Below are positions 7,979 to 60,602 of a stretch of 64,000 nt of DNA, piece after piece. How positions within the stretch are numbered: the stretch's first letter is position 1; each line of letters begins with the position of its first letter. A program made the position numbers and the translations under genes. This DNA comes from Chloroflexota bacterium (GTDB lineage: Bacteria > Chloroflexota > Dehalococcoidia > Bin125), in assembly GCA_028873865.1 (NCBI GenBank), contig JAPPNI010000030.1, positions 85,268-149,267 of the forward strand, written 5' to 3'. The notes below the pieces were generated by a model. It was not told the DNA's origin. It saw nothing but the letters and a program-made list of their open reading frames with translations, and ran no database searches.

Positions 7979-9772
7979 TTACTCCGTCGGCCGGGAGAAC
8001 TCGATCGGCCCATCGCTGACCAGATGGAGGTTGGCCACCAGGTCGACACGTCCGGCGCTGGTCTGGAACTCCGCCGTGGTCACCTGGCTGGCCAATCTGC
8101 CATCATCCCCGGACATCGTCAGGATCGTGGAATAGTGCTCGATCGATTCAATTGTCACGCTCTCGGCGAGAAGTTCGGTGGTGTCTGCCTTGAGAATCTC
8201 GACAACCTGGGCAAAGTGAGCGTCATCGCCAGCCAGCGGACCGCTCTCGATGACCAGTTCATACACCGGAGGTCCGCTCCCCTCGATCGTTCGTGTCACC
8301 CACGAGATGTCGAGCAGGGCCCTGAGCGGGTCCAGGTTGAATCGATCCGGATTGGCCAGGAACTCGTCGACTGTCATCCCGGCAAAGCCCAGCAGGGCCG
8401 GATTCGACGGCGCCCAGATCGGTCCGCCGTTCTCTTCGACATCGCTCGTCCAGATCCCGTCCCGGTTCCAGAGCAGCCGGAAAGTGCTGGCCCCGTCAAT
8501 GTTGACCGTCGTCTCGAACGCCCCCGCGATGCGGGAACTCTGCACAATGACCGAGGCGAGGCGCGCCTCGCCGTCAATCACGGCCTGGGCTATGAACTCG
8601 ACGTGTAGCTCATCCGCGTTCGCGACCCAATCTGAAGCCAGCTCCAACAACTGATCCGGCGTCAGCAGCTCAGCCGGCGCCCGCCCGGCGCCCGGGTCCT
8701 CCGCGCTCGATTCTCCGAAGTCCTGCAACAGGGACCCATCGACCAGCGGCTCGGGCGTCGGAAACTCGACCGGTTCGTTCCACGAAATCAGATTCACCAC
8801 CGTCAGGACGTAGAACCCGGGATCCTCATCCGAGTCCTCCGCCTCTCCCACCGACAGGCCGAACGCGTCGCGCAGCCTGGCTTCTGTCTCGAGCAGCAGC
8901 GGTGCGCCGGAGGTCTGGCTGATCGCCAGGCGCAACACCGCCGATTCGATGCCGGCGTCGGTGACATCGATACCCTCGGCGGTCAACCGCTGTGCAGCCG
9001 CGGAGTTGAGCGCATCGACATCGACTGTGCACTCGACAAACCAGACTGGCTGATCGGCGTGCCGCCCCTCGGAGATCGATCCGCCAATGGCGTCGACGCA
9101 GTCCAGGGCCTGGCCCAGTTGATCGGGGTCGGACACATCCTCAGGGTTCGTGCCCAACATCGCCGTGAGACCGGCCAATGTTTCTTCGAATTGGTCGCTC
9201 AGGTCAATCCACCCTCCGATCTGAGGCATGGAGAGGTAGGCGGCGTCCTCAGAGAACAGCACCTGCATCAAGAGGGGCTGATCGAGACCGGCTTGCTCAT
9301 CGTCGGCGAGTTCGCCTGCCACCTCGAGCAGCGAGCTGGCATCGATCGTCGTCAGCGCCATAAACGGTTCGAGCTGCACTACGACCGCCGTCGTGACCTG
9401 CGCCGACAGACCGCCCAGGTTCAGGTCAACGTCAATCGCCATTTCAAACGACTCGAGGTCGGCCGACCACGCGTCGAACGCCGCCTGCGCCGCCGCGAAC
9501 AGAGGATCCGCCTCCGGGTCATCGAGAGCCTGGGTCGGCTGCGCCTCGTCCTCTCGGTCCCCCGCTTGCGGATCCGCCTCCTGCTCGGCCTCCGAAGCTT
9601 CCTCCTCCGACTGCCTCCCGTCAGCGCTCGTGGTCGCGCGCTGTGCGGTCTGCTCCGATTGTTGCTGCTCCGGCTGAGCCTGCTGCTGCGCTTGCTCATC
9701 GCCCCCGCAACCGGCCAGCAACGCAGCCACGGCGAGCATCGCGGCAATCAGGAACAAACGCAGCACGCGCAT
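7979..9772 (-). CDS. secreted lipoprotein of unknown function with two copies of a C-terminal repeat ending ...NEPVEFPTP / ...GPIEFSRPTE
   Basis: Signal peptide MRVLRLFLIAAMLAVAALLAGC with lipobox, an acidic Q/E-rich linker, no recognisable catalytic motif; paralogous to 10894..11814. Confidence 0.6.
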   Translation of the reverse strand: MRVLRLFLIAAMLAVAALLAGCGGDEQAQQQAQPEQQQSEQTAQRATTSADGRQSEEEASEAEQEADPQAGDREDEAQPTQALDDPEADPLFAAAQAAFDAWSADLESFEMAIDVDLNLGGLSAQVTTAVVVQLEPFMALTTIDASSLLEVAGELADDEQAGLDQPLLMQVLFSEDAAYLSMPQIGGWIDLSDQFEETLAGLTAMLGTNPEDVSDPDQLGQALDCVDAIGGSISEGRHADQPVWFVECTVDVDALNSAAAQRLTAEGIDVTDAGIESAVLRLAISQTSGAPLLLETEARLRDAFGLSVGEAEDSDEDPGFYVLTVVNLISWNEPVEFPTPEPLVDGSLLQDFGESSAEDPGAGRAPAELLTPDQLLELASDWVANADELHVEFIAQAVIDGEARLASVIVQSSRIAGAFETTVNIDGASTFRLLWNRDGIWTSDVEENGGPIWAPSNPALLGFAGMTVDEFLANPDRFNLDPLRALLDISWVTRTIEGSGPPVYELVIESGPLAGDDAHFAQVVEILKADTTELLAESVTIESIEHYSTILTMSGDDGRLASQVTTAEFQTSAGRVDLVANLHLVSDGPIEFSRPTE

Positions 9773-23673: not shown

Positions 23674-24918
23674 CTATCCAGCCCGAGCTGGCCACTTCGG
23701 ATGCGACTTCAGCCGCTCCAGAATCGCCACGCCGACGTCGTACTTGTGCAGCAACGGCAGACGCTCGGGCTCTCCCGACGCGTCGAGCAAAACGACTCGG
23801 TTGGTGTCCACTCGGAATCCGGCGTCGGACTGGCTGACATCGTTGGCTGCGATGAATACCAGACCTTTCTTCTCGATCTTCGCCTTGGCGTTCTCGATCA
23901 AGTCGTCTGTCTCAGCGGCGAATCCCACCTTGAGCAGGTGCGGCACATCAACTGAGGCAATCACGTCGGGGTTCTCGACCATCTCCAGGGTCATGCCCTC
24001 TTGCTCAGCGTCCTGCTTCTTGAGTTTCGACTCCGCAGCTTCTGCCGGCCGATAGTCGGCGACCGCAGCCGCCATGACCAAGGCGTTCGCCCCTCGGGCC
24101 GCCTTCTGGATTTCTTCCTGCATCTCGATCGCTGTGCCGACGGATCGCACCACGATTCCGTACCGACCCTCGGGAGGCGGCTGGGTCGTGATCAGGGTCA
24201 CCGCCGCGCCCTGGTCTCGGGCCGCCTCGGCCACCGCGACGCCCATTTTGCCGCTGGAATGGTTGCCAACGAAGCGAACCGGATCGATCGGCTCCCGCGT
24301 GCCGCCAGCCGTGACGATGATGTGGCGTCCACGCAGGTCGCCCACCGTGCGGCCGATCGCCGAGCGCACCGCGGCGGCCAGCTCGATCGGTTCGATCAGA
24401 CGTCCCAGCCCCTTACTCCCGGATGCCAGCCGACCGGTCGCGGGCCCCGCGATGAACACACCGCGCGCCTTGAGCAGCTCGAGGTTGGCTTGCACGGAGG
24501 GCTGGCCGTACATCACCGAATCCATCGCCGGCGCCACGATCAATGGCGCGCTCGTCGCGAGCGCGGTCAGAGTGACCGGATTGTCGCCGATGCCCTGAGC
24601 CAGCTTTGCGATCGTGGTGGCGGAGGCCGGCGCGACCAGCATCGCGTCGGCGCGTCGGCCCATGGCAACGTGCTGCTCCGCCGGCGCCGACGAATCCCAG
24701 AGATCGGCCGCGACCTCCCCCTGGACCAGCGAGCGGAAGGTCAAAGGTGGAACGAAGCGCACTGCTGATGGAGTCAGCGCAACATCGACGACCGCCCCGG
24801 CATCCTCCAGCCGACGCGCCGCCTCAATGCTCTTGTACGCGGATATGGAGCCGGTGACGCCCAGGGTGACTCGGCGGCCGCCGAGCGGCCGCGGCGGCGG
24901 GACGTCGCTGCTGCTCAT
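23674..24918 (-). CDS. coaBC: bifunctional phosphopantothenoylcysteine decarboxylase / phosphopantothenate-cysteine ligase
   Basis: N-terminal flavoprotein domain (RVTLGVTGSISAYKS) and C-terminal DFP domain. Confidence 0.9.
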   Translation of the reverse strand: MSSSDVPPPRPLGGRRVTLGVTGSISAYKSIEAARRLEDAGAVVDVALTPSAVRFVPPLTFRSLVQGEVAADLWDSSAPAEQHVAMGRRADAMLVAPASATTIAKLAQGIGDNPVTLTALATSAPLIVAPAMDSVMYGQPSVQANLELLKARGVFIAGPATGRLASGSKGLGRLIEPIELAAAVRSAIGRTVGDLRGRHIIVTAGGTREPIDPVRFVGNHSSGKMGVAVAEAARDQGAAVTLITTQPPPEGRYGIVVRSVGTAIEMQEEIQKAARGANALVMAAAVADYRPAEAAESKLKKQDAEQEGMTLEMVENPDVIASVDVPHLLKVGFAAETDDLIENAKAKIEKKGLVFIAANDVSQSDAGFRVDTNRVVLLDASGEPERLPLLHKYDVGVAILERLKSHPKWPARAG

Positions 24919-25691
24919 GGAGTGCCTTCGGCGTTGTGGTAGTAGAGCTCACGCAGACCCCAGAGAATCAGATCCTCATCGACGATGTCGAGGATTTCCG
25001 TCTCTTCTGCGATTCGCGGCGCCCAGCCGCCGGTAGCCACCACCTGCGCTTGACCGAGCTCCTGGCGGAAGCGGGCGATGATTCCCTCCACGAGGCCGAC
25101 GTAACCAAACAGGATGCCGCTTTGCAGCGCAGTCTCCGTGCGCGTACCAATCGCCGCGGGCGGACGGTCGAGGTCGATCCGAGCCAGCCGGCTGGCACGG
25201 TCGAACAGCGCCTCCGTCGAAATGCCGATGCCGGGCGAGATAGCGCCGCCGATGTAAACGCCGTGCTCATTGATGGCGTCGAAGACCGTCGCGGTGCCGA
25301 AGTCGACGACGATCAGCGGCGGCGGCCCATAGCGAGAGACGGCAGCCACCGCGTCAACGATGCGATCGGCGCCGATCTCCTCGGTATGTTCGATCCCGAT
25401 TCGGACCGGTTTCTTCATGTGGGGCGAAACCAGAAGAGGTTCGGTGCGCAGGAACTTGCGGCAAACGTCCTGAAACACAGGCGCCAGCGCAGGCACGACT
25501 GAGGAAATGATCGCTCCGTCGATCTGTGCAATTTGGATGCCCTCATAGCGCAACAGCGATGCGACGAAGATGCCGTATTCGTCCGACAGCCGGTCATGCT
25601 GGGTGGCCAGTCGCCAGGTGTGGACAATTTTACGGTCGTTAAACACACCGATCTGGAGGGTCGTATTGCCGATGTCGATTGCGATCAACAT
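24915..25691 (-). CDS. coaX: type III pantothenate kinase
   Basis: MLIAIDIGNTTLQIGVF N-terminus and a Bvg accessory factor-like fold; 4-nt overlap with coaBC. Confidence 0.85.
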   Translation of the reverse strand: MLIAIDIGNTTLQIGVFNDRKIVHTWRLATQHDRLSDEYGIFVASLLRYEGIQIAQIDGAIISSVVPALAPVFQDVCRKFLRTEPLLVSPHMKKPVRIGIEHTEEIGADRIVDAVAAVSRYGPPPLIVVDFGTATVFDAINEHGVYIGGAISPGIGISTEALFDRASRLARIDLDRPPAAIGTRTETALQSGILFGYVGLVEGIIARFRQELGQAQVVATGGWAPRIAEETEILDIVDEDLILWGLRELYYHNAEGTP

Positions 25692-25884
25692 GGCGGGTCG
25701 TCCTTCCCGACGCGTTCGTGAATCGCTCAACCGACACAGGCCAGGTCGAGCGATCTCTGCGCAGCCTCACTATCTCGCGCATTCTACGCAAGATCGGCAT
25801 CGGCCCTCCCGGCCACTCGCCGAGGGGGTCCCGATGGGCAAGAGAAGACTGCGCGATGCCTGTCAAGTTCGCCGATCAGCGGAC

Positions 25885-25950
25885 GTGGATAGTCCGGGGA
25901 AGATGTGGAAGAGATATCTGGTTGAGTCACCCATCAACCAGTTCCACAGC
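25885..25950. promoter_or_regulatory. cluster of three DnaA-box-like 9-mers (cGTGGATAg, TGTGGAAGA, gTTCCACAg) 135-200 bp upstream of dnaA
   Basis: Seen in sequence; near-matches to TTATCCACA / TGTGGATAA in the dnaA upstream region. Confidence 0.5.
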
Positions 25951-26083
25951 ACGCTGTTGTGTGCGCAGATGCTGGTTAGTATGTTCCCCCAAGCAGCCCC
26001 TCTGATGAGCGGCGAACTTGGTCAGCCCTGCAGGGCGCCCGTATCGCTTGCAACGGTCTTTGCCATAAGGAGGCGACAGCGGC

Positions 26084-27493
26084 ATGGTCACCCGATCCGC
26101 CCGCTCTTTCGGCGACCCTCACTCGGATCACCGAGCCATCTGGCAGCGCACTTTGCAAATCCTCGGCGACTCGCTTGATCGCGAGACCTTCGAGACCTGG
26201 TTTGCCGACACGCACGCGATCGAGGTTCGTGGCGGCGTGCTGCATGTCGGTGTGCCGACCGTGATCAAGCTGGAAACGCTGCGCGGCAGCTACTACCCGC
26301 AGCTCGCCTCGGCGGTCCGTCAAGCCTCGGGCCGATCCATGGAGATTGAACTGCGCGTTGCCTCGCCGCCGGAACCGGTCACGCAAGCTCTCGATCTCCC
26401 CTCAGGCGACGAATCTCAGCCGTCCGCCGAGCGCGGCCAGCCAATCCAGCCGGCGCGCAGCCGTCCGTCCGTCCTCAATCAGGCAACGTTCGAGCGCTTT
26501 GTCGAAGGCACATCCAACCAGATCGCCGTCACCGCATCTCGCCGAGTCGCGTTCCATCCCGGCGAAGACACGAACCCACTGTTCATCTACTCCAACTCCG
26601 GCCTGGGCAAGACCCACCTGCTGCATGCCATCGCACACGTGACCATGCAGTCGCACTACACAGTGCTGGTCGACACGGAGTCTTATGTCCGCCAGTTCGT
26701 CAACAGCGTCGGCGCCGGCGAGCGCGCCGCCTTCCAGGAAAAGTATGAGTCCGCTGAAGTCCTGATCGTCGATGACGTGCAGAAGCTGGGCGGCAAAGTC
26801 CAGACCCAGGACGAGTTCTACAACGTCTTCAACGCGCTGCACCAGCGCGGCCGGCAGATTGTGATCGCCTCCGACCTGCCGCCCAGGTTGTTGACCGGCC
26901 TCAGCGAACGTCTCGTCACGAGATTCGAGGGCGGCTTGGTGGTGGAAATCAACCAGCCCGATGTCGAATTGCGAATGGCAATCCTGCAGCGCAAGATTCG
27001 CGACTGGGGCATGGTTGTTGACGAGCCGACGATTCAGATGATCGCTGAGCGCGGCGGGACGAACATCCGCTCCCTGCTCGGCGGCCTGCAGCGAGTGCGC
27101 GTCTTCGCCGAAAGCGAGCGATCGCTCGTTACGCCAGGCATCGTGATGCGGGCCTTGGCCGGGCATGCGCAGGAAGAAACGCGCAAGGCCAAACCCACCG
27201 TGGCAGAACTGATCGCAGCGGCCTCCGACATCACCGGCGTCGCACCCGAGTTGTTCACTGCCACTCGCAAGGATCGGCGAACGGCCAGGGCTCGCCAGTT
27301 GGTCATGTACCTGGCCTGCCAACACACCGACCTCTCACTCAACTCGATTGGCGAGGCACTGGGCGGACGCGACCACTCGACCGTTCTGCACGGACGCGAC
27401 AAGGTCGAGCGGCTGCTCGCCGACTCTAGCGACGCAGAAGCCCACTGGTGGATCCAGCAGATCTCTGAGATTCGCTCCCGCCTCCACCTCTAG
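26084..27493 (+). CDS. dnaA: chromosomal replication initiator protein DnaA
   Basis: AAA+ Walker A LFIYSNSGLGKTHLLHAIAH and a C-terminal domain IV (LVMYLACQHTDLSLNSIGEALGGRDHSTVLHGRDKVERL). Confidence 0.9.
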   Translation: MVTRSARSFGDPHSDHRAIWQRTLQILGDSLDRETFETWFADTHAIEVRGGVLHVGVPTVIKLETLRGSYYPQLASAVRQASGRSMEIELRVASPPEPVTQALDLPSGDESQPSAERGQPIQPARSRPSVLNQATFERFVEGTSNQIAVTASRRVAFHPGEDTNPLFIYSNSGLGKTHLLHAIAHVTMQSHYTVLVDTESYVRQFVNSVGAGERAAFQEKYESAEVLIVDDVQKLGGKVQTQDEFYNVFNALHQRGRQIVIASDLPPRLLTGLSERLVTRFEGGLVVEINQPDVELRMAILQRKIRDWGMVVDEPTIQMIAERGGTNIRSLLGGLQRVRVFAESERSLVTPGIVMRALAGHAQEETRKAKPTVAELIAAASDITGVAPELFTATRKDRRTARARQLVMYLACQHTDLSLNSIGEALGGRDHSTVLHGRDKVERLLADSSDAEAHWWIQQISEIRSRLHL

Positions 27494-27727
27494 GTCGACG
27501 CGCTCCGGCATCCACGCCACGTCAACGAGTCTTCCAGCTTGAGAAACGGGTGCTCCACGGCACTCCCACACCCCTGCACATCCCGCGCACAGCTTTGGGG
27601 GTAGTTTCCGGTCGTCATCCCCAGTGCCCCCAACCACAGAAACAACGACAGCGAATTATTTCCTCTCCTGAGTTTTCATAGATCCCTGATCCGGAGCGTG
27701 CGTCGGCACTGTGGATAAACTCAACTC
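27494..27727. promoter_or_regulatory. candidate oriC: perfect DnaA box TGTGGATAA at 27710-27718, degenerate boxes, and an AT-rich patch at 27637-27690
   Basis: Seen in sequence immediately downstream of dnaA; the AT-rich stretch (aacaacgacagcgaattatttcctctcctgagttttcatagat) stands out in a 67% GC background. Confidence 0.5.
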
Positions 27728-29002
27728 ATGATCGATTCCGTCGAGATCGAGATCGAGGGCGGGGCCGGTGGCCGCGGAGCAGTGTCGTTTCGCCGCGAGA
27801 AATTCGTGCCTCGCGGCGGCCCTGACGGCGGCCGCGGCGGCCGCGGCGGAGACGTGGTCGTCCAAGCCAACAGCCAGCTGAACACCCTGCGGCGATACCG
27901 GCGGCAACGACGCTTCCGCGCCGAGCCAGGAACCAACGGTGGAACCAACCAGAAGCGCGGCAGGGCCGGCGCGACCATGGTCCTCGAGCTTCCCGTGGGC
28001 ACGATGGTTTCGCGGCTCCGTGGGCAGGAAGCCGAGCAACTGGTCGACCTGGAAGAGGACAAACAGTCGCTGGTTGTGGCCTGGGGTGGGCGTGGCGGCC
28101 AGGGCAACATGTACTTCCGCAGCGCCACTAACCAGACGCCTCGCGTTGCGCAGAGGGGCGAACCGGGCGAACGCTGCCGCCTGCGCTTCGAACTGCGGGT
28201 GCTGGCCGATGTCGGCATCGTGGGACTGCCGAACGCAGGCAAGTCATCGCTGCTCCGCCACCTGAGCGCCGCCCGCCCGAGAGTCGCCGACTACCCCTTC
28301 ACGACTCTGGAGCCGCATCTCGGCGTCGTCTCCGTCGGCTGGGGCGAGTTCGTAATGGCCGACCTGCCGGGCCTGATCGAGGGCGCCGCCGGCGGAGCGG
28401 GGCTCGGGCACGAGTTCCTCCGCCACACCTCCCGAACCAGACTGCTGGTCCACCTGATCGACGGCTCGCAGGACAATCCACGAGCCGCAAAAGCCCTGGT
28501 CGACCGCGAACTCGCCGGGTACTCGGCCGATTTGGCCGGGCGGCCACAGATCGTCGTCGTCAACAAGGTCGATCTCGAAGAAGTCGACGTCTTTCGCGAC
28601 GAGATCACTGCGCAATTCGGCGACCTGGAGTCGCCGCCGCTCTTCTGCTCCGCCGCGACCGGCGAAGGCGCCCAAACCTTGGTCGATGCATGCGCGTCGA
28701 TGCTGGAAGAACTTCGGCAGCAGGAGCCTCCGCGGACGACGGAGGTGCCCGTCGTCCGGCCCAGGCAGGACGGCCGGCGATTCGAAGTCGACGAGTTGGC
28801 CTCGGGGCTCTACCAGGTCCGGGGGGCATCGGTCGAGCGGTTTGTCTCGATGATGGATCTGGGCGAAGACGAGGCCCTGGCCGAGACCTACCGCTGGCTG
28901 GATCGTCGAGGCGTGGCCTCGGCCCTGCACCGCGCCGGCTGTCAGCCAGGCGACGTGGTCAGGATCGGTCGGTCGCGCATTACTTGGGAATGGGAGCGCT
29001 GA
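27728..29002 (+). CDS. obg: GTPase Obg
   Basis: Glycine-rich N-terminal Obg fold (GGRGGDV, GGAGGRG), a G domain (GLPNAGKSSLL) and a C-terminal OCT domain. Confidence 0.9.
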   Translation: MIDSVEIEIEGGAGGRGAVSFRREKFVPRGGPDGGRGGRGGDVVVQANSQLNTLRRYRRQRRFRAEPGTNGGTNQKRGRAGATMVLELPVGTMVSRLRGQEAEQLVDLEEDKQSLVVAWGGRGGQGNMYFRSATNQTPRVAQRGEPGERCRLRFELRVLADVGIVGLPNAGKSSLLRHLSAARPRVADYPFTTLEPHLGVVSVGWGEFVMADLPGLIEGAAGGAGLGHEFLRHTSRTRLLVHLIDGSQDNPRAAKALVDRELAGYSADLAGRPQIVVVNKVDLEEVDVFRDEITAQFGDLESPPLFCSAATGEGAQTLVDACASMLEELRQQEPPRTTEVPVVRPRQDGRRFEVDELASGLYQVRGASVERFVSMMDLGEDEALAETYRWLDRRGVASALHRAGCQPGDVVRIGRSRITWEWER

Positions 29003-29637
29003 CGTCTGTGGTTGAGAGCAGCGAGATTCGCTTTGAGCCGCACGAACGGGTCGGGGCCTTGGGCGGCACCTTTGATCCGCTTCATCGCGCCCATCTCCAT
29101 CTCGCCGACGCTGCCGCGCAGGCGCTCGAGCTGGATCGACTAATCCTGATTCCCGCGGGCGACCCCTGGCGCAAGCGAGGTCGCGACGTGACCCCGGCCG
29201 AGCACCGCCTCGCCATGACCGCCGCAGCGGTTGACGAGCGCCGGGGAGGTCTCGAGGTGTCGGATCTGGAGGTGGCTCGCGAAGGGCCTACGTACACCCT
29301 CGACACCGTGCGTGAACTCCGCGATCGGGGAGCACAGCAACTCTGGTGGATCATGGGCGCCGACGCGGTGCTCGACCTCCCTAAGTGGCACCAGCCCAAC
29401 GAGATCCTGGCCTGCGCCCGTATCGCAGCAGCGGTCAGGCCGGGCGCGGAGCTTGATCGTCGGCAGCTCGACAAGATCGTCTACGGCCTCGGCCGCTGGC
29501 TTGACTGGGTGCCGATGGAGCCGATTGACCTTTCGGCCTCCGGACTCAGGGAGCGAATCGCCCGGGGCGAGGACGTCTCGGATGACGTGCCGGCCGCCGT
29601 GCTGGACTATGCCCGGGCCCATCGGCTCTACGAATAA
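28990..29637 (+). CDS. nadD: nicotinate-nucleotide adenylyltransferase
   Basis: LGGTFDPLHRAHL (the HxGH-type nucleotidyltransferase motif); 13-nt overlap with the obg stop. Confidence 0.85.
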   Translation: MGALTSVVESSEIRFEPHERVGALGGTFDPLHRAHLHLADAAAQALELDRLILIPAGDPWRKRGRDVTPAEHRLAMTAAAVDERRGGLEVSDLEVAREGPTYTLDTVRELRDRGAQQLWWIMGADAVLDLPKWHQPNEILACARIAAAVRPGAELDRRQLDKIVYGLGRWLDWVPMEPIDLSASGLRERIARGEDVSDDVPAAVLDYARAHRLYE

Positions 29638-29702
29638 CCCAGCGGCTGAACACCAGCTCGGCTCGCGTGGACCGACGCGACACCTGGTGCAGGCGGAGGC
29701 TC

Positions 29703-33089
<3,387 letters not shown>

Positions 33090-33095
33090 CACGAG

Positions 33096-33587
33096 GTGCC
33101 CCGGCTGCGCAGCAACATCATCGCCGTCTACGTCGTGCGTCCGTCGGAGAACGGCATCGAACTGCTGATGCTCCAGCGACCGGAGGGCCACCGCTTCGCG
33201 GGCGCCTGGCAGACTGTGGGCGGTCATATCGAGGAGAAGCAGGGCGAAACCGCCTGGCAGGCCGCGATCCGCGAAACGAACGAGGAAACCGGCCTCGATG
33301 TCGAGCACTGGTTCCGCATCGACCGCCCTGAGACCTTCTACAACCCCGAAAACGACACGATCTACTTCGTCCCCGCCTTCGCCGCCCTGGTCGCGGCAGG
33401 ATCGGAACCAACGATCTCAGACGAACACCAGGCCTGGCGCTGGCTGACTCCCAATGAAGCAGCCGAAACCGTCGATTGGGCGGCAATGCGGGACTCGATT
33501 CTGATGGTCGGTGAAGCGTTGGCGAATCCTGATTGCCCCGGGCTGGGGGTCACCGAGATGTACCCAGCCGAACTAGCCGCCGATTGA
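33096..33587 (+). CDS. NUDIX hydrolase
   Basis: NUDIX box GGHIEEKQGETAWQAAIRETNEETGL. Confidence 0.8.
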   Translation: MPRLRSNIIAVYVVRPSENGIELLMLQRPEGHRFAGAWQTVGGHIEEKQGETAWQAAIRETNEETGLDVEHWFRIDRPETFYNPENDTIYFVPAFAALVAAGSEPTISDEHQAWRWLTPNEAAETVDWAAMRDSILMVGEALANPDCPGLGVTEMYPAELAAD

Positions 33588-33672
33588 GATCGGGTCCGAC
33601 ACCCGCCCGTCGGGGGTCTGCAATGGGCACCACGAGACTGACCATCACCTCCGACCGTGCAACGATGACTAC

Positions 33673-34758
33673 ATGACCTCCATTGGACTGATCGGTTTCG
33701 AACGCTCCGGCAAAACGACCCTGTTCAACGCCCTGACCGGTGCCGGACGGGCGACCGGATTCACCACCCACACGGAGCCAAACGAAGGCGTCGTCCCGGC
33801 CGCTGATGAGCGGCTCAGCCGACTCTCTGACCTCTATCAACCGAAGAAAACCACCCCGGCCGTACTCGATGTGGTCGATTTCCCCGGCGCCGGATTCGCC
33901 GGAGCATTGGGCGGCGGCAACGAGCCGCCGTCGAGCAAACTGCTCGACCAGCTTTCTCAGCTCGATGCGCTGGCCCACGTCGTCCGCGCCTTCGACAACG
34001 ACGCCGTGCCGCATCCCGCCGAGCGCATCGATCCCGAGGCCGACATCGAAGCAATGCAACTGGAGCTCACCTTCGCCGACCTCGCCCTGATCGAGAAGCG
34101 CCTCCAGCGCATCGCCGACGAAACCAAGTCAATGAAGGCCGCGGAACGGGTCGCCGTCGACCGGGAACGGGACTTGCTGAGCCGCCTACAGAGTCACCTC
34201 GGCGACGGCGGCACCTTGCTGGACGCTCCGCTCTCGGAGCTTGAACGCGCCGACATCCGCCACTACCGATTCCTCACAGAACGACCGATGCTGACCATCT
34301 TCAACGTCGATGAGGACACGGCTGCAGGGGGAACGATCGAAGGCATCGCACTTTCTGCCCGGTTGGAGGAAGAACTGCGCGACTTCGACGAAGAGGAAGC
34401 CGCCGCATACCGGGAAGAGCTCGGCGTCGGTGCGGGCGCGGTCGAGACGGCGCTGCAGGAGACGTTCCGGCTGCTCGGTCTGCGCACCTTCTTCACGGTC
34501 GGCCCGGACGAGTGTCGGGCCTGGACCGTTCGAGCCGGCGGCACCGCCCCACAGGCCGCCGGCAGGATTCACACCGACTTCGAGCGCGGCTTCATCCGCG
34601 CCGAGGTGGTGCGCTGGGACCATCTGCTCGACTGCGGCGCCGCGGTAGGAGCGTCGGGAGCCGAGGCGGAGGCCAAGAAGCGGGCCCAACTCAGCACGCA
34701 GGGCAAGGAGTACGAGGTCCAGGACGGCGACGTCCTGCACATCCTCTTCAACATCTGA
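33673..34758 (+). CDS. ychF: ribosome-binding ATPase YchF (Obg-family GTPase)
   Basis: IGLIGFERSGKTTLFNALTG P-loop and a C-terminal TGS domain (EYEVQDGDVLHILFNI). Confidence 0.85.
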   Translation: MTSIGLIGFERSGKTTLFNALTGAGRATGFTTHTEPNEGVVPAADERLSRLSDLYQPKKTTPAVLDVVDFPGAGFAGALGGGNEPPSSKLLDQLSQLDALAHVVRAFDNDAVPHPAERIDPEADIEAMQLELTFADLALIEKRLQRIADETKSMKAAERVAVDRERDLLSRLQSHLGDGGTLLDAPLSELERADIRHYRFLTERPMLTIFNVDEDTAAGGTIEGIALSARLEEELRDFDEEEAAAYREELGVGAGAVETALQETFRLLGLRTFFTVGPDECRAWTVRAGGTAPQAAGRIHTDFERGFIRAEVVRWDHLLDCGAAVGASGAEAEAKKRAQLSTQGKEYEVQDGDVLHILFNI

Positions 34759-34788
34759 CGAGTCCAATCCGGGACGTATCCTCTATCC

Positions 34789-35625
34789 ATGGCCAGTTCC
34801 GCCGAGATCGCCCGCGCCCTGCTAATCGCCGCCCGCGAGGGCCCTGCCGTTGCCTCGTGCACGGTGATGGGCGCGACCGACGGCGTCAATGCCGCGCTCG
34901 GCGCCAAAATGCTGGTCTATGAGGGCCGGAACCTGGGCGAGATCGGCGGCGGCCCGCTGGAAGAGGCCGTCGCTGAATTTGGTCGCCGAGCGATCCCCAA
35001 GCACCTGGTGCAGACCTGCGCCTTCACGCCGGATGGCCAACTGGTCGAAGGCCGCCGCGCGATCGAATCCGCCGACGCGATCGTCGAAATTCTCGTCGAA
35101 GTAGTCGAGCCGGCCTCGACCCTGCTCGTGGTCGGCGGCGGACATGTCGGCCTCGCCGTGGGACAGCTCGGCGCGATGCTGGGCATGGAGGTCGTCATCA
35201 TCGATGACCGCGAAGATTACGCCAACGAAGAGCGCTTCCCCTACGAGGCCAACGTGATCTGCGGCGACTTCGGCGAAGAGCTCGAGCAGTTCCCGATTAC
35301 AGCCAACACCTACATCGTCCTGGTCTCGCGCGGACACAAGGTCGACGAGCTCGCTCTGCGCACCGTCGCCGAGCGCGGCGCTGGCTATGTCGGCATGATC
35401 GGCTCCAAACGACGAACCCGCACCGTGCTCCAGCACCTGGCCGAGGAAGGCGTCGACTCTGAGGCGCTGGACAGGGTCTTCACGCCGATCGGCCTCGATA
35501 TCGGCGCTGAAACTCCGGAAGAGATCGCCGTATCCGTGTTGGGCGAAATCATCCTCGTCCGCAGGGGCGGCGGCGCACAGCCGATGTCAGAGCACGGCCG
35601 CTTGCTCGCGGGCAAGCAACGCTAA
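34789..35625 (+). CDS. xdhC: XdhC/CoxI family molybdoenzyme maturation protein (N-domain plus Rossmann domain)
   Basis: N-terminal XdhC_CoxI-like segment (GAKMLVYEGRNLGEIGGG) and a Rossmann domain (LLVVGGGHVGLAVG...GMIGSKRR). Confidence 0.75.
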   Translation: MASSAEIARALLIAAREGPAVASCTVMGATDGVNAALGAKMLVYEGRNLGEIGGGPLEEAVAEFGRRAIPKHLVQTCAFTPDGQLVEGRRAIESADAIVEILVEVVEPASTLLVVGGGHVGLAVGQLGAMLGMEVVIIDDREDYANEERFPYEANVICGDFGEELEQFPITANTYIVLVSRGHKVDELALRTVAERGAGYVGMIGSKRRTRTVLQHLAEEGVDSEALDRVFTPIGLDIGAETPEEIAVSVLGEIILVRRGGGAQPMSEHGRLLAGKQR

Positions 35626-35656
35626 ACTGTTCGCCAGGAGACGCAGAGGAACAACG

Positions 35657-35974
35657 ATGCCCCAGGACGAGGTCTACGAAGCCATGTCGAGCGCCTTTGA
35701 ACAGGGCGCCCCGGTCGCTCTGGCGACGGTCGCCCAGACGCTCGGATCGACGCCGCGCAAGACCGGCGCCAAGATGTTGGTCCGCGAGGACGGCTCGTTC
35801 GTCGGGACGATCGGCGGCGGCTGCGGCGAGGCGGAGGTCTGGCAAGAGGCGATGGACGCGCTCGACGACGGCGACGCCCGCATGGTCACGGTCGACCTGA
35901 CCGAGCCGGTCGACGGCGAAGACAAGATCTGCGGTGGGATTATGCGCATCTTCGTCGAGAAGCTGGAAGCATAA
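35657..35974 (+). CDS. stand-alone XdhC/CoxI N-terminal domain protein
   Basis: VALATVAQTLGSTPRKTGAKMLVREDGSFVGTIGGGCGEAEV is the XdhC_CoxI N-domain signature. Confidence 0.65.
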   Translation: MPQDEVYEAMSSAFEQGAPVALATVAQTLGSTPRKTGAKMLVREDGSFVGTIGGGCGEAEVWQEAMDALDDGDARMVTVDLTEPVDGEDKICGGIMRIFVEKLEA

Positions 35975-36131
35975 CTGAGCCCGCCCAGCCTGGGGAACAC
36001 TGATAAGCTAGGGATCAGCCGCCCGTACCGGGTCTCTCTGACCTAGTGATGTCGGGGAGGAAGACCGAGGCGAGGCGCCGCACCCAGCGAGCGGCGCGCG
36101 CTGAGCGCCGGCGGCACAGCAGGAGTTCGGT

Positions 36132-36380
36132 ATGGCACTGATCGGGTTTGGTCCTGTCGAAGCGATTGTCGTTGTGATCGTGGTGTTGGTCGTCTTCGGC
36201 GCGGGTCGTTTGGCCGGCGTCGGCAAGGCGCTCGGTACCGGCCTGCGTGAGTTCCGCGAGGAAGCGCGGACGCCAAATTCGGAGGAAGAGGGCGAGGAAG
36301 ACGCGACGGACGAAGTCACTGTCTCGTCCAGCACGTCGGAAGAAGAAGACAAGCCGTCCTCGTCCGGCTCCTCGGGCTGA
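36132..36380 (+). CDS. tatA: twin-arginine translocase subunit TatA/E
   Basis: MALIGFGPVEAIVVVIVVLVVFGAGRLAGVGKALG... with an acidic C-terminal tail. Confidence 0.85.
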   Translation: MALIGFGPVEAIVVVIVVLVVFGAGRLAGVGKALGTGLREFREEARTPNSEEEGEEDATDEVTVSSSTSEEEDKPSSSGSSG

Positions 36381-36404
36381 CGTCCCCACGCCAGTTCATC
36401 ACCC

Positions 36405-37163
36405 TTGACCCGGCTGCGTGCAGTTGCCCTTGACCTGTGGGGCACCCTGATCGTTGACGCACCCGGCGGCGGCCGGCGACGCATGCGCCGCCGTGAAGCA
36501 CGCCTGACCAGGGCCTACGAGCGAGCGGGCGCCGGCAGCGGTGCCGCCGGCGCCGTCCCGAAGGCGATCCGGCACGCAATCGATGAGCTGGTCGTTGCCC
36601 ACCAGTCCAACATCGATCTGTCCGGCGAGGACCGCCTCAATGCCGTGCGTCGCTCGATGCTGGAACAATGCCCCGACACCGTCGAAGATGACGCCCTGCG
36701 GGAAGAGTTGGTCGCGGCAATCTGCGAAAGCCCCAGTTGGGAGCCGCCTGACATCATCGATGGCGTCGAGCGAGAACTCGCTGCGCTGAAGCAGCGTGGA
36801 GTCACCTTGGCGGTGGTCTCCAACACCGGCCTCGCCCCGGGCCGATACGTCGAGGACGCATTGGTCGCCCGTGGCTTCGACCGCTGGATCGACCACTGGA
36901 TCTGGTCCGACGACGTGCTCAGCTGGAAACCAGGCTCGGCCATCTTCGCTGCTGCGCTCGATGCGCTCGGCGCATCCGCCGGGGAAACCGCCTTTGTCGG
37001 CGACACGCCCGAGGCCGACATCCTCGGCTCTCGCCACGCCGGCTTCGCCGTCTCAGTGCTGGTCGGCGACAAATCCGATGAGGCCATAGAGCCCGATCTC
37101 ACCCTGCCGTCGGTCAGGGGACTCACGGCGAGGCTGAAACAACGAGGCTATCTGTCTCACTGA
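36405..37163 (+). CDS. HAD-superfamily hydrolase
   Basis: Motif I AVALDLWGTL (DxD-type) and downstream HAD motifs (VVSNTG, GDTPEADI). Confidence 0.75.
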   Translation: MTRLRAVALDLWGTLIVDAPGGGRRRMRRREARLTRAYERAGAGSGAAGAVPKAIRHAIDELVVAHQSNIDLSGEDRLNAVRRSMLEQCPDTVEDDALREELVAAICESPSWEPPDIIDGVERELAALKQRGVTLAVVSNTGLAPGRYVEDALVARGFDRWIDHWIWSDDVLSWKPGSAIFAAALDALGASAGETAFVGDTPEADILGSRHAGFAVSVLVGDKSDEAIEPDLTLPSVRGLTARLKQRGYLSH

Positions 37164-48655: not shown

Positions 48656-50026
48656 CTAGCCGATGGCCGCTCGGCGCGTGGGCGGATGCCCATCGTCGCC
48701 CGGATCGGTTGCCGCGATGTCGTCGCTGTCGAGCAGATGTCCCATCTTCTCCTGCTTGACCGACAGGTAGCGGACGTTGTGCGGATTCGCTGAGGCGATC
48801 ACCGGCACCCGCTCGACAACTTCCAACCCATAACCGGCCAGACCGTGACGCTTGGCCGGATTGTTGGTCATCAGTCGGATCCGGTGCACTCCGAGGTCGC
48901 GCAGAATCTGCATGCCGATTCCGTAGTCGCGGCGATCGGCCGAGAAGCCCAGCGCGAGGTTGGCCTCCACCGTGTCCATGCCCTGATCCTGCAAGGCATA
49001 GGCGGCGATCTTGTTGTGCAGACCGATCCCGCGGCCCTCCTGCGCCATGTAGACGATGACCCCCCGTCGTTCCTCGGCGACGCGGCGCATGGCGAGCTCA
49101 AGCTGTTCTCCGCAATCGCAGCGCTGCGAGGAAAAAACGTCGCCGGTCAAACACTGGGAGTGGACCCGGACCAGCGTGGGCTCACCGCCGTCGACATGCC
49201 CCATCACCAACGCCACGTGCTCCTCGGAGTGGTCTCGCGTGCGATAGCCGAGCAGCCGCCAGGTACCCATCGGGGTCGGTAGCTTCGCCTCCGAGACCCG
49301 CTCGACGAGCTGCTCCGTGCGTAGTCGGTACTGAATGATCTGTTCGACCGAGACGATCTTGATCTTGTGTCGCCGAGCGAAGCGCACCAACTCGGGCAAG
49401 CGCGCCATGTCGCCGTTGCGCTTCATGATCTCGCAGATCACCGCCCCCGGCTGCAGACCGGCCAATCGGCACAGGTCAACCGACGCCTCCGTCTGACCGG
49501 CCCGAACCAGGACCCCGCCCTCGCGCGCCCTGAGCGGGAACATGTGCCCCGGACGCACCAGGTCCTCTGGCGTGGAATTCGGATCCATGAGCACCTGAAC
49601 CGTCCGCGCCCGGTCCGGCGCCGAAATCCCCGTCGTTACGCCCGAACGCGCCTCGACCGAGACCGTAAAGGCCGTTCCCAGCGGAGCGGTATTGGAGTCG
49701 TGCTCAACCATCAGGCGCAGGCCCAGTCGGTCGAGAATGTTCCCGTCCATCGCTACGCAGATCAGGCCGCGCCCGTGAGTAGCCATGAAATTGATCGTGT
49801 CCGAGGTCACGAACTGCGCCGGCAGCGCCAGGTCGCCTTCGTTCTCCCGGTCCTCGTCGTCCGTGATGATTAGCGGCTCACCCTGGGCGAACGCCTCGAT
49901 CGCTTCCTCGACCGTGCAGAATGGCGATTTCCGTCGGCCGCTGCTGGCTCGGCGCGCGCGCCGTGGTTTCTTCGCTTCGCTGTTGGTCGAAGAATCGGTT
50001 GCCGGGGAAGTCTCGGCGTCGGTCAT
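48656..50026 (-). CDS. ribBA: bifunctional 3,4-dihydroxy-2-butanone-4-phosphate synthase / GTP cyclohydrolase II with a basic N-terminal extension
   Basis: DHBP synthase domain (DDEDRENEGDL) and GCH-II domain (C-x2-C-x-C zinc site CLTGDVFSSQRCDCG). Confidence 0.9.
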   Translation of the reverse strand: MTDAETSPATDSSTNSEAKKPRRARRASSGRRKSPFCTVEEAIEAFAQGEPLIITDDEDRENEGDLALPAQFVTSDTINFMATHGRGLICVAMDGNILDRLGLRLMVEHDSNTAPLGTAFTVSVEARSGVTTGISAPDRARTVQVLMDPNSTPEDLVRPGHMFPLRAREGGVLVRAGQTEASVDLCRLAGLQPGAVICEIMKRNGDMARLPELVRFARRHKIKIVSVEQIIQYRLRTEQLVERVSEAKLPTPMGTWRLLGYRTRDHSEEHVALVMGHVDGGEPTLVRVHSQCLTGDVFSSQRCDCGEQLELAMRRVAEERRGVIVYMAQEGRGIGLHNKIAAYALQDQGMDTVEANLALGFSADRRDYGIGMQILRDLGVHRIRLMTNNPAKRHGLAGYGLEVVERVPVIASANPHNVRYLSVKQEKMGHLLDSDDIAATDPGDDGHPPTRRAAIG

Positions 50027-55439: not shown

Positions 55440-57824
55440 ATGCTCAGCGATTATCGAATTCTCGATCTGACGGACGATCGCGGCCTGATCGGCGGAATGA
55501 TCCTGGCCGACCTCGGCGCCGATGTGATCGCGATCGAGCCTCCCGGCGGCAATGCCGCCCGCCAACGCGGCCCCTTCGCCGACGGCTCCAACCAGGGCGG
55601 TATCGAAGACTCCCTGACCTGGCAGTCCTACGCCCGAGGCAAGCGCTCGGTCGTCCTGGATCTGGAGTCCGACGACGGTCGCGCACAGTTCATTGAGCTC
55701 GCGCGCTCGGCCGACGCGGTCATCGAGTCGGCCGACGTCGGCGGCATGGATTCTCTCGGCCTCGGCTATGAGACGCTCTCTTCCGTCAACCCTGGCCTGG
55801 TCTACGTCGCCATCACCCCCTTTGGCTCCACCGGACCCAAGGCCGGCTGGGCCGCGACCGACATCACCGTCGCCGCCGCAGCCGGACCGATGATCCAGAG
55901 CGGCGACAAAGACCGACCGCCGCTCCGAGTCGGATTGCCGCAGACCGCCCTACACGCCGGCGCGGAGGCGGCGCTGGCCGTCCTCATGGCCCTGCACGAG
56001 CGCCAGCGTTCCGGACGTGGACAGTTCGTCGATGTCTCCGCCCAGGCCGCCTACGCCCAGGCGACGCAGTCCGGAATCGTTGCCGCTGCCAACAACTCCG
56101 GCCAGTTCACACGCTCAGCCGTCGGCGCAGCCCTCGGCCCACTTGAGATCCGGCTCTTCTGGCCCTGCAAGGATGGCCACGTCGCGATCACATATCTGTT
56201 TGGCGCGGCGATCGGCCCCTTCACCGACCGACTCATGCAGTACGCCCTCGAGGAGGGCTACTGCGACCAGGCCACCCGCGACAAGGACTGGCTCAACTAC
56301 ACCAACCTCATCCTCAGCGGACAGGAACCGATCAGCGAGTACCTCCGCTGCTGTGACGTGATCGGCGCGCTCTGCGCCGACAAGACCAAGGCCGAGCTGT
56401 TCCAGGTCGCGCAGGAGCGTCGCCTCCTCCTGGTCCCGGTTTCAACGATGGACGACCTCGATGAAAACGAGCACCTCGCCGCCCGCTCCTACTGGCGCGC
56501 AGTCGAGCGCGACGGTCAGACGGTTAAGTTTCCAGGACCGTTCGCCCGTCTCTCCGAGACGCCGATCCAGTACGGCCGCTCCGCGCCGATGCTCGGCGAA
56601 CACACCGATGAAGTCCTCGCCGAAACGCGTCCCGCAGCGAGTCTGCACGCCGCCAACGGCTCCGGCGACTCGGCGCCGACCGCCCCACCCCTCTCCGACC
56701 TCAACATGCTTGACCTGATGTGGGTCATGGCCGGACCGGCTGGGACGCGAGCGCTCTGCGACTTCGGCGTCAACACGGTGCGAATCGAATCCAGCACCCG
56801 GATCGACACCGCCCGCACCCTGCAGCCGTTCATCGACGACGAAGCCACCCAACCCGAGGGCTCGTCGATGTTCCACAACATGAACGCCGGCAAACGCATG
56901 ATCACCGTCGACCCGGCCAACCCCGAAGGCCGCAAACTGATCCTCGACCTCGTCCGCTGGGCCGACATCGTGACCGAGTCCTTCACGCCCCGCGCCATGC
57001 GCGGCTGGGATCTGACCTGGGACACCATCCACGAGGTCAACCCGCGCGCGATCATGATGTCCTCCTGCCTCATGGGACAGGATGGCCCCCTGGCCGAGTT
57101 CGCGGGCTTCGGTAATCTCGCCGCCGCCTTCGCCGGCTTCACCCCGCTCTGCGGCTGGCCCGACCGCTCGCCTGCCGGACCCTTCGGCGCATACACCGAC
57201 TACGTCGCCCCGCGCTTCGCCTCCGCCGCCCTCTTGGCCGCCCTCGACGAGCGCGACCGCACCGGACAAGGCCAGTACATCGACATCTCGCAGATGGAAG
57301 CCGCCATCCACTTCCTCACCCCAGCCTTCCTCCAGTACCGCCTCACCGGCGAGAAGTGGCTCGCCGACGGCAACAACGACCCCGACATGTCCCCCCACGG
57401 CGTCTTCCCCTCCCAGGGCGAAGATCAATGGGTCGCCATCGCCTGCCGAGACGACGCCGACCGCGCCGCCCTGGAATCCGTGCTCAACGGCCAGTCGTTG
57501 GAAGAATGGACCGCCGCCCGCTCGAACGAGGAAGCCATGAACGCGCTCCAGGCCGTCGGCGTGCCCGCCCACGCCGTCCAGGACTCCGCCGCCTGCTTCG
57601 CCGACCCCCAGCTCCAGCACCGCAACCACTTCGTCCAGCTCGCCCATCCGACGCAAGGACAGTCGGTCGTCGAGGGAGCCAGGATCGTCTTCGGCCGTAC
57701 CCCCGCCGGCCGACCCCAGGTCGCCCCGACCATGGGCGCCGACAACGACACCGTCCTCCGTGACCTCCTCGGCTACACCGACGAGCAGGTCATCGAGCTG
57801 GTAGCGTCTGGCGCGTTGCAGTAA
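55440..57824 (+). CDS. family III CoA-transferase (CaiB/BaiF), single-chain tandem fusion of two domains; paralogue of 41870..44203
   Basis: MLSDYRILDLTDDRGLIGGMILADLGADVIAIE and a second LNMLDLMWVMAGPAGTRALCDFGVNTVRIE CoA_transf_3 start; 794 aa. Confidence 0.8.
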   Translation: MLSDYRILDLTDDRGLIGGMILADLGADVIAIEPPGGNAARQRGPFADGSNQGGIEDSLTWQSYARGKRSVVLDLESDDGRAQFIELARSADAVIESADVGGMDSLGLGYETLSSVNPGLVYVAITPFGSTGPKAGWAATDITVAAAAGPMIQSGDKDRPPLRVGLPQTALHAGAEAALAVLMALHERQRSGRGQFVDVSAQAAYAQATQSGIVAAANNSGQFTRSAVGAALGPLEIRLFWPCKDGHVAITYLFGAAIGPFTDRLMQYALEEGYCDQATRDKDWLNYTNLILSGQEPISEYLRCCDVIGALCADKTKAELFQVAQERRLLLVPVSTMDDLDENEHLAARSYWRAVERDGQTVKFPGPFARLSETPIQYGRSAPMLGEHTDEVLAETRPAASLHAANGSGDSAPTAPPLSDLNMLDLMWVMAGPAGTRALCDFGVNTVRIESSTRIDTARTLQPFIDDEATQPEGSSMFHNMNAGKRMITVDPANPEGRKLILDLVRWADIVTESFTPRAMRGWDLTWDTIHEVNPRAIMMSSCLMGQDGPLAEFAGFGNLAAAFAGFTPLCGWPDRSPAGPFGAYTDYVAPRFASAALLAALDERDRTGQGQYIDISQMEAAIHFLTPAFLQYRLTGEKWLADGNNDPDMSPHGVFPSQGEDQWVAIACRDDADRAALESVLNGQSLEEWTAARSNEEAMNALQAVGVPAHAVQDSAACFADPQLQHRNHFVQLAHPTQGQSVVEGARIVFGRTPAGRPQVAPTMGADNDTVLRDLLGYTDEQVIELVASGALQ

Positions 57825-57849
57825 ATCCGGTACCCACAGGAACAGCGAC

Positions 57850-59336: not shown

Positions 59337-59380
59337 CACGAGCCCCAGCCTACCCGCCCCATCCACGGACCGTCCGCCTA

Positions 59381-59457
59381 AACTGGCTGTGGGTCCTTAG
59401 CTCAGTTGGCCAGAGCAGCGGACTTTTAATCCGAAGGTCCTGGGTTCGAGTCCCAGA
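59381..59457 (+). tRNA. tRNA-Lys (anticodon UUU), genome-encoded CCA
   Basis: Folded by hand: 7-bp acceptor stem GGGTCCT/AGGACCC, D arm GCTC/GAGC, anticodon loop CTTTTAA, T arm CTGGG-TTCGAGT-CCCAG, discriminator A then CCA. Confidence 0.85.
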
Positions 59458-59543
59458 GGACCCACCACGTTCACCCAGGCCCAGACGATTCGGCGCGGTT
59501 AGGGCAGGGTCGTATGCTTGGCCGTCCGAACGTGAGAATCTAG

Positions 59544-60539: not shown

Positions 60540-60602
60540 GAGTCAGCGGGTGTTGTCGCCAGCGTTTCGCCGGGTCAACTGCGACCGATAGGGGCCGATC
60601 AA

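Follow-up and report, generated by a model that had tools for sequence, protein, structure and literature searches.

A conserved putative DnaA-assembly and unwinding module between dnaA and obg as a candidate replication origin in Dehalococcoidia

The stretch of DNA analyzed here, hereafter referred to as the window, comprises 64,000 nucleotides from a Chloroflexota bacterium of the class Dehalococcoidia (lineage Bin125; assembly GCA_028873865.1, contig JAPPNI010000030.1, positions 85,268 to 149,267 of the forward strand). It contains the gene of the replication initiator DnaA (26084..27493, plus strand), followed by the obg gene encoding a GTPase (27728..29002, plus strand), which was assigned by Pfam and by synteny and rearrangement data. 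The 234-bp spacer between these genes (27494-27727) holds a set of putative DnaA binding sites and an AT-rich segment, and a comparison with related genomes established that it represents a conserved module with the predicted roles of DnaA assembly and DNA unwinding. The window belongs to a metagenome scaffold of 109 kb (ENA ERZ23495468, ROBB21-1 scaffold_456); the RibBA protein encoded at window positions 48656-50026 occurs in identical form on a 166-kb NCBI contig of a metagenome-assembled genome, so that a longer assembly of this genome exists. The scaffold sequence examined around dnaA amounted to 78 kb in total, including the window and its flanks. The genome set used for comparison consisted of 27 close relatives, the records of which are named Chloroflexota or Dehalococcoidia metagenome-assembled genomes and include several closed chromosomes of 3.1-3.6 Mb; some isolate names (SB0664, IRC, RHO) suggest a sponge origin. 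Closed relatives are represented by OZ219765.1 (dnaA at about 2,796,496), OZ241982.1 (dnaA at about 950,589), OZ244071.1, OZ247431.1 and OZ253471.1, the last of which is of the inverted type described below; the strongly skewed contig ERZ26050812 ctg28378_264x_c carries the module near position 2,548,000 of 3,259,939. The relatives were read over 21-44 kb per genome, with box counts made on 21-kb loci; the loci L033 and L034 were fetched via Obg homologues, and a scan of metagenomes contributed one further locus.

A multiple alignment of 22 dnaA-obg spacers (alignment A1), taken from relatives with DnaA proteins that are 69-92% identical to that of the window, revealed conserved islands amid near-random sequence. 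The conserved core motifs are 83-99% identical, whereas the intervening columns show an identity of 54%. The dnaA-proximal part of the spacer is occupied by a direct array of five predicted weak DnaA boxes with TCCAC-type cores (27508..27570, plus strand; 88-91% column identity). The cores of these boxes, designated b1 to b5, start at positions 27511, 27522, 27533, 27554 and 27565, corresponding to a spacing of 11, 11, 21 and 11 bp, and each box deviates from the consensus TTATCCACA by 3-5 mismatches. A spacer of fixed length and free sequence (27571..27614) leads to box b6 (27615..27623, plus strand), which reads TCATCCCCA in the window and TTATCCCCA, one mismatch from the consensus, in the relatives; the distance between the cores of b5 and b6 is always 54 bp, i.e. 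about five helical turns. Since the core distances of 11/11/21/11/54 bp, which are the same in 20 of the 22 sequences, match the helical repeat, all six direct sites (b1-b6) are expected to lie on one face of the helix, where they span 108 bp or approximately ten helical turns. A template of the phased array scored 7 at position 27511 and at most 3 elsewhere on both strands of the 78 kb (156 kb of strand), a result that shows the uniqueness of the array and not its significance, as the template was derived from the 27511 site itself.

Box b6 is directly followed by a GC cluster (GTGCCCCC, 27624..27631) that is conserved in alignment A1, where the relatives read TTGCCCC, and by a trinucleotide-periodic A/C tract (AACCACAGAAACAACGACAGC, 27632..27652, plus strand) with the consensus CAACAACAACGACAGCA in the relatives and a mean column identity of 75%. 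The adjacent AT-rich segment (27653..27685) is a candidate DNA-unwinding element (DUE). Its sequence is unconserved among the 22 relatives, in which it has a length of 33-44 bp and a mean AT content of 58% versus 33% in the rest of the spacer. It is bordered by a conserved block (CTGATCCGGAGCG, 27686..27698; 83% mean column identity) that contains a GATC site. The module is completed by the invariant 13-mer TGTGGATAAACTC (27710..27722, minus strand; 99% column identity), which ends 5 nt before the ATG of obg and includes the perfect box b7 (TTATCCACA, 27710-27718). The distance between b6 and b7 varies from 86 to 97 bp in the 22 spacers.

A previous inspection of the window without comparative data, referred to below as the sequence-only reading, had noticed the perfect box at 27710-27718, together with degenerate boxes and a neighbouring AT-rich patch. 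The perfect box and the AT-rich patch were confirmed: the perfect box is located on the minus strand and is the only one in the 64 kb, the spacing of the sites is invariant and phased, and the duplex of lowest stability in the window lies where the strong boxes point towards each other. The region 27653-27690 is 63% AT, compared with 36% in the rest of the spacer and 35% in the window, and the least stable duplexes of 30, 40 and 60 bp in the entire 64 kb start at positions 27653, 27653 and 27631, respectively. The free energy of the least stable 30-mer is -35.2, versus a mean of -47.9 (standard deviation 3.1). The local density of DnaA boxes is only marginally raised. The two best-scoring 300-bp box windows of the 78 kb flank dnaA, but their score corresponds to the 95th percentile of the shuffled maximum, and boxes with at most one mismatch in the window are only marginally above chance (4 observed versus 3.0 expected). 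Consensus scans permitting one or two mismatches are only marginally enriched; the weak sites carry 3-5 mismatches and become visible only through their conservation. In the relatives, 49 of the 64 boxes with at most one mismatch are situated in the approximately 900 bp flanking dnaA (27 loci; about 4% of each 21 kb); box b7 is perfect in 19 of the 27 relatives and is usually the only box with at most one mismatch in a 21-kb locus. With respect to the sequence features of an oriC, the spacer combines seven conserved putative DnaA sites within 210 bp, of which one is perfect, another deviates by 1-2 mismatches and the other five are weak, with a predicted unwinding element that coincides with the stability minimum of the 64 kb and that retained its AT-richness and length in 22 genomes.

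An Rfam scan of the region 25600-27800 detected no RNA family in the spacer, and a scan of the same region for sigma-70 promoters and terminators yielded no consensus promoter and no plus-strand terminator in it. The AT-rich segment contains no conserved -10-like hexamer or -35 element, unlike the visibly conserved putative promoters of dnaA and coaX. The two GATC sites of the spacer do not represent a significant enrichment over the approximately 0.8 sites expected by hand calculation. A mini open reading frame (GTG..TAA) ending inside the perfect box was considered and rejected, as its start codon is unconserved.

Several of the related genomes are rearranged at this locus. The loci L008, L009, L033 and L034 share a 9.7-kb inversion that extends from obg to the HAD gene (window 27494-37163). 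The breakpoint immediately follows the dnaA stop codon, and the module is retained in full upstream of obg, approximately 10 kb away from dnaA. In the more distant locus L038, the core from coaBC to nadD is inverted relative to the arms. L037, likewise a distant relative, comes from a 3.26-Mb assembly contig that is probably circular, as judged from the ending _c of its name; in this locus the order of the blocks module-obg-nadD and coaBC-coaX-dnaA is swapped. The module of L037 is degenerate, with altered spacing and the sequence TTGGATAAG in place of b7, and is again situated upstream of obg; the spacer 3' of dnaA contains only REP-like repeats, and a three-box cluster upstream of dnaA is still associated with this gene. 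Three independent rearrangements accordingly have end-points at or beside the module, which is located upstream of obg in every arrangement seen. Both box clusters beside dnaA are conserved; in the L008-type genomes and in L037 they lie 5-11 kb apart in changed relative order or orientation, which argues for an independent function of the clusters. These data indicate that the module is an autonomous unit that is always linked to obg and around which rearrangement end-points cluster. The interpretation of the spacer as a 3' element of dnaA was rejected, since the inversion breakpoint directly follows the dnaA stop codon and the module departs with obg. As additional observations, the dnaA-downstream spacers of L037 (16172-16428) and L008 (11440-11600), from which the module has moved away, are filled with REP-like repeats (cgtcattcccgcccc..; cattcccgcg..cgcgggaat), and the enlarged 700-bp dnaA-obg spacer of L038 contains an inserted open reading frame of 57 codons (9420-9593) specifying a cysteine-rich, zinc-ribbon-like protein.

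The spacer upstream of dnaA was aligned for 27 sequences (alignment A3). It contains three phased, putative weak DnaA boxes on the minus strand (25884..25912), namely CTATCCACG at 25884-25892, a GGGGA-type site at 25895-25903 and TCTTCCACA at 25904-25912. The respective cores GTGGA, GGGGA and GTGGA are invariant or nearly so and are spaced by approximately 10 bp; the third site reads TCATCCACA in many relatives, and a box with one mismatch is present at about -181 in many relatives. The sequence-only reading had listed three near-consensus boxes in this region, CTATCCACG, TCTTCCACA and agttccaca (25941-25949), which in fact carry two, two and three mismatches. The first two are conserved and enclose the GGGGA-type site, whereas the third one is unconserved. 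A further conserved block, CTGTTGT..TGGTTAGTATGTTCCCTCAAGC (25954..25995, plus strand; nearly invariant columns), probably represents the dnaA promoter, with a putative -10 element TAGTAT at 25977-25982; the scan gave no consensus sigma-70 match in this block. The conserved motif GCATTCTA(G/C)GC (25777..25788, minus strand; invariant columns), corresponding to TAGAAT on the minus strand, is probably the -10 element of the coaX promoter, and the ribosome-binding site AAGGAGG upstream of dnaA is conserved in the 27 sequences. The three-box cluster, which precedes the putative -10 element by approximately 70-90 bp, most likely serves the autoregulation of dnaA. It stays with dnaA in the rearranged genomes and is therefore probably not the second half of a bipartite origin, since the module moves 5-10 kb away from it.

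The dnaA gene itself specifies a protein of 469 amino acids with the Pfam domains DnaA_N, Bac_DnaA and Bac_DnaA_C. Its translation includes the Walker A motif SGLGKTH, the Walker B motif LIVDD, the box VII sequence SERLVTRF with both arginines and the intact DNA-recognition signature GGRDHSTVLH of domain IV. The earlier identification of this reading frame as dnaA was confirmed by the three domains, the AAA+ motifs and the domain IV signature, and the gene is, as judged from its translation, a canonical initiator gene with intact box-recognition residues. The gene calls also agreed with the described position of dnaA between the divergent coaX gene (24915-25691, minus strand) and the obg-nadD pair (27728-29637, plus strand). 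According to Pfam, the left neighbours of dnaA are coaX and coaBC, and the genes to the right are obg, nadD, a methyltransferase gene and gyrB (30370-32439, minus strand). Gene calling across the 78 kb of scaffold gave no DNA_pol3_beta (dnaN) gene, in agreement with the view that the sliding-clamp gene is not adjacent to dnaA. The more general statement that the canonical neighbourhood is missing applies only in part, as gyrB is situated merely 2.6 kb downstream. Moreover, the gene arrangement turned out not to be unusual: the order from dapB to xdhC is kept in 24 of the 26 window-type loci, and a dispersal of replication genes has been reported for Chloroflexota, namely for T. roseum (PMC2615216). 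The lack of dnaN beside dnaA is ordinary for this phylum.

With a probability of roughly 0.5, the 234-bp module represents oriC, i.e. the DUE-bearing core of the chromosomal origin, in this sponge-associated Dehalococcoidia family. Its architecture resembles that of an origin complex because motifs and spacing were kept while the intervening sequence diverged to near-randomness, and the preservation of the module as one unit through the 9.7-kb inversion, the rearrangement end-points at or beside it and the skew step of one relative (L013, see below) likewise speak in favour of an origin. In the proposed mechanism, DnaA would first occupy the two strong sites, the TTATCCCCA-type box b6 and the perfect inverted box b7, which face each other across the AT-rich segment. 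ATP-DnaA would then fill the weak, helically phased sites b1-b5, and the oligomer would be directed towards the GC cluster, the (CAA)n tract and the AT-rich segment, which it would melt.

The layout of the locus shares several features with the origin of Bacillus subtilis, in which box clusters are located on both sides of dnaA (incA/B upstream, incC with the trios and the DUE downstream). In both cases the unwinding element is situated downstream of dnaA and before the next gene, the boxes of the array face a GC cluster and an AT-rich segment, and the distal boxes are helically phased (PMC6669920; PMC5295017). In contrast to B. subtilis, the next gene is obg and not dnaN, the module is autonomous and can be located 5-10 kb away from dnaA and the upstream cluster, the trio-like tract has the opposite polarity, and the DUE is bounded on its far side by a perfect inverted box. 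Co-transcription of dnaA and obg is possible, as with dnaA-dnaN of B. subtilis, with no plus-strand terminator found between the genes. The oriC of Escherichia coli contains 11-bp arrays of weak sites between strong boxes, with spacers of fixed length and free sequence. The module resembles this arrangement in its weak sites with 3-5 mismatches, which are placed 11 bp centre to centre between strong boxes, and in its conserved spacer lengths. It differs from the E. coli oriC in having one direct array and a single opposed box instead of two opposed arrays and in the location of the DUE between the strong boxes and not outside the box field; in addition, it lacks recognizable IHF and Fis sites and an enrichment of GATC.

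The order of box, GC cluster (8 bp), A-centred trinucleotide repeat and AT-rich segment corresponds to that of the basal unwinding system (BUS). The module conforms to the literal BUS rule, which demands at least three NAN units no further than 16 bp from a box with at most two mismatches: the box TCATCCCCA (27615-27623) is followed, after a 13-bp spacer, by CAG AAA CAA from position 27637, and another run, AAC AAC GAC, starts at a distance of 17 bp; the relatives carry (CAA)3-4 in the A/C tract. The tract thus occupies the position of the DnaA-trios, but with the opposite strand polarity: the strand with 5'-TCATCCCCA-3' itself carries the NAN repeats, and the complement is devoid of A in this tract. 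The A-centred repeats of B. subtilis, Clostridioides difficile, Helicobacter pylori and E. coli are found on the strand complementary to that of TTATCCACA. Followed in the 5'-to-3' direction from the boxes to the DUE, the strand carries CTA repeats in C. difficile and H. pylori, with E. coli behaving likewise, and A-centred repeats in the present module. Relative to b7 the polarity of the repeat is right, but the spacer has a length of 58 bp. The complement of the A/C tract contains TTGTT motifs, which resemble the single-stranded DUE motif of E. coli.

In Dehalococcoides, a member of the same class, dnaA is probably gene 1, with a presumed local order of dnaA-obg-nadD-gyrB. The GC skew of Dehalococcoides gives a consistent origin across strains, which is used as coordinate zero (PMC2764846). 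For these genomes, Ori-Finder proposes the species-specific box TTATCGAAA (PMC2275245), whereas the genome analyzed here uses the canonical TTATCCACA. A search of the literature revealed no experimentally defined origin for Chloroflexota.

Strand asymmetry was analyzed by means of the G and C content at fourfold degenerate sites, with separate terms for the coding strand (c) and for the strand of DNA (r). If the leading strand is G-rich, r is expected to be negative on the left and positive on the right of an origin. The 78 kb yielded c = -0.09 and, left of 27.6 kb, r = -0.065 (confidence interval -0.12 to -0.002). A number of results weigh against an origin at the module. The value of r right of 27.6 kb is -0.23 (95% confidence interval -0.30 to -0.15), where an origin predicts a positive one, and a codon-family-corrected model gave r = -0.06 on the left and -0.25 on the right. 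Over the 78 kb, the plus strand is richer in C than in G to either side of the module, without an origin-type sign change, and right-flank values of -0.20 and -0.23 were obtained in two closed relatives. In L037 the skew is very strong, the plus strand being C-rich across 21 kb in genes of both orientations, and no sign change occurs at the module or at dnaA in these 21 kb. The same direction is indicated by the polarity of the (CAA)n tract, which is wrong for canonical DnaA-trios, by the association of the module with obg and not with dnaA in the L008-type inversion and in L037, and by the naive box density, which is not significant in the single sequence. Furthermore, the skew-defined origin of the Chloroflexota member T. 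roseum is not located at dnaA (PMC2615216).

On the local data available (78 kb of scaffold, 21-44 kb in the relatives), no GC-skew switch was accordingly found in the scaffold or in L037, and the test named by the sequence-only reading, a skew minimum at about 27.6 kb, is locally negative; of its proposal of a candidate oriC, the conserved box and DUE architecture stands, whereas the local skew gives no support. The skew test is, however, not decisive because the asymmetry is patchy. In the housekeeping core at 15-42 kb, r is about zero in roughly 28 window-type lineages, and the core genes keep their own coding skew regardless of orientation, inverted genomes included. One relative, L013, whose proteins are normally similar to those of the window, displays an origin-type step, in which r is about zero on the left, increases from dnaA/obg onwards to +0.2 and reaches +0.7 thereafter. 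The 9.7-kb inversion was uninformative as a test of replication direction, as the coding skew of the flipped genes was shifted by only about +0.05. The skew is moderately negative evidence and not a refutation, and neither an origin at this site nor an origin elsewhere combined with a uniform replication skew explains all of the skew data.

Further observations on silent-site composition were made in these sequences. In L013 (10001-21407), the silent sites of the right arm are strongly G-rich on the plus strand, the left arm is normal, and the boundary is located at the module. Gene-specific coding-strand skews at fourfold sites, determined for window positions 14000-40000 and the orthologous loci, are conserved in about 28 lineages and unaffected by inversion; they are approximately -0.4 for xdhC, -0.35 for the nudix gene and +0.1 for the methyltransferase gene. 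The region 55440-59366 of the window is almost devoid of G at fourfold sites of the plus strand irrespective of gene orientation, with skews of -0.55 and -0.84 in the plus-strand genes encoding a CoA-transferase and an alpha/beta hydrolase and +0.73 in the adjacent minus-strand RibD_C gene; the orthologues in two relatives are skewed as well, but less so.

The evidence that weighs against an origin leaves room for the tentative but substantial alternative that the module is a DnaA-box cluster outside the origin, which controls obg-nadD and/or titrates or modulates DnaA, whereas the true oriC is located elsewhere on the chromosome, e.g. near dnaN or at another skew switch. Multi-box clusters that are independent of the initiation site, such as datA, DARS1/2 and the DnaA-box clusters of B. 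subtilis, are well documented and would fit the missing skew switch (PMC5295017), and a skew-defined origin away from dnaA has been described in Chloroflexota (PMC2615216). The uniform skew polarity, seen to the left and to the right in the window and likewise in two further lineages and along L037, points in this direction, as do the invariant box 5 nt before the obg start codon and the inseparability of module and obg in all arrangements, in two of which dnaA is 5-10 kb away. The linkage to obg does not separate the hypotheses, however, since breakage within the module or in the 9 nt that separate the box from the ATG is probably deleterious in either case, and the skew, which is patchy, stays at about zero at 15-42 kb and did not change with the inversion, is of limited use for judging the direction of replication. 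Seven phased sites and the least stable duplex between convergent boxes moreover exceed what we know of DnaA-regulated promoters, and the AT-rich segment is free of conserved promoter elements. Compared with the known clusters as we understand them, the module is distinguished by its DUE-like stability minimum, its 11-bp phased array of weak sites and its position abutting a start codon; to our knowledge, datA and DARS are devoid of a DUE. That the module is not an origin but an origin-like DnaA assembly site controlling obg-nadD, with the chromosome initiating elsewhere, is possible though on balance unlikely.

Two other explanations appear less probable. The module might be a former or secondary origin, that is, the ancestral oriC of the class, located beside dnaA as in Dehalococcoides, which was kept for the regulation of dnaA/obg after initiation had moved in some or all lineages. 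This improbable scenario would account for a module that is preserved in window-type genomes and degenerate in L037, where the strong skew shows no switch, and for the lineage-specific skew at the module, with a step in L013 and none in L037. Near-perfect spacing and AT-richness in more than 20 genomes nevertheless argue for the maintenance of full function and not for a relic, and no alternative origin candidate was seen in the 78 kb. A chance cluster of box-like words in an ordinary spacer could be invoked on the ground that the single sequence shows no significant enrichment of boxes counted against the E. coli consensus, but it has a negligible probability and is effectively refuted by the comparative data, as motifs and exact spacings are kept in more than 20 genomes with an otherwise randomized spacer and survived the inversion intact.

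Some genes at a greater distance from dnaA deserve mention. Approximately 3-4 kb to the left of window position 1 (L035 5106-6376), a Dam-family MethyltransfD12 methyltransferase gene adjoins a gene with a PDDEXK nuclease fold, and the two probably constitute a restriction-modification pair. A tRNA-Lys gene (59391-59467) is followed by the stretch of lowest GC content in the window (about 60%, up to 62384), which is neutral in skew. The region 59391-62384, with a hypothetical gene and a gene for an N6_N4 methyltransferase-HNH fusion (60603-61991), resembles an island inserted at tRNA-Lys; two boxes with one mismatch are present in it without forming a cluster. A sterol-type biosynthesis cluster, unusual for bacteria, begins in the window (62385-64000) and continues in the adjoining sequence (L036 14437-20801). 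It encodes a fusion of squalene epoxidase and squalene/oxidosqualene cyclase with 1118 amino acids, a cytochrome P450, an ERG4/ERG24-type reductase and a Rieske protein, and it fits the lifestyle of a sponge symbiont.

The dispersed replication genes of Chloroflexota weaken the gene-context rules of origin-prediction tools, and the patchy silent-site asymmetry warns against the use of local GC skew as a test for an origin, whether or not the module is oriC. The locus provides a delimited candidate of 234 bp with seven putative sites, fixed helical phasing and a defined segment predicted to be meltable; over 20 sequence variants and three rearrangements of it are known from natural genomes. If the module is oriC, weak DnaA sites that are invisible to consensus scans would be recoverable by comparing related genomes, and the module would represent a basal unwinding arrangement that departs from the usual one in the reversed polarity of its repeats. 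Otherwise, the locus would be an origin-like DnaA complex reserved for obg, the more unusual of the two cases, and control of obg-nadD by such a complex would mean that the state of the initiator is wired directly to the expression of the Obg GTPase and to NAD synthesis across a family of Chloroflexota.

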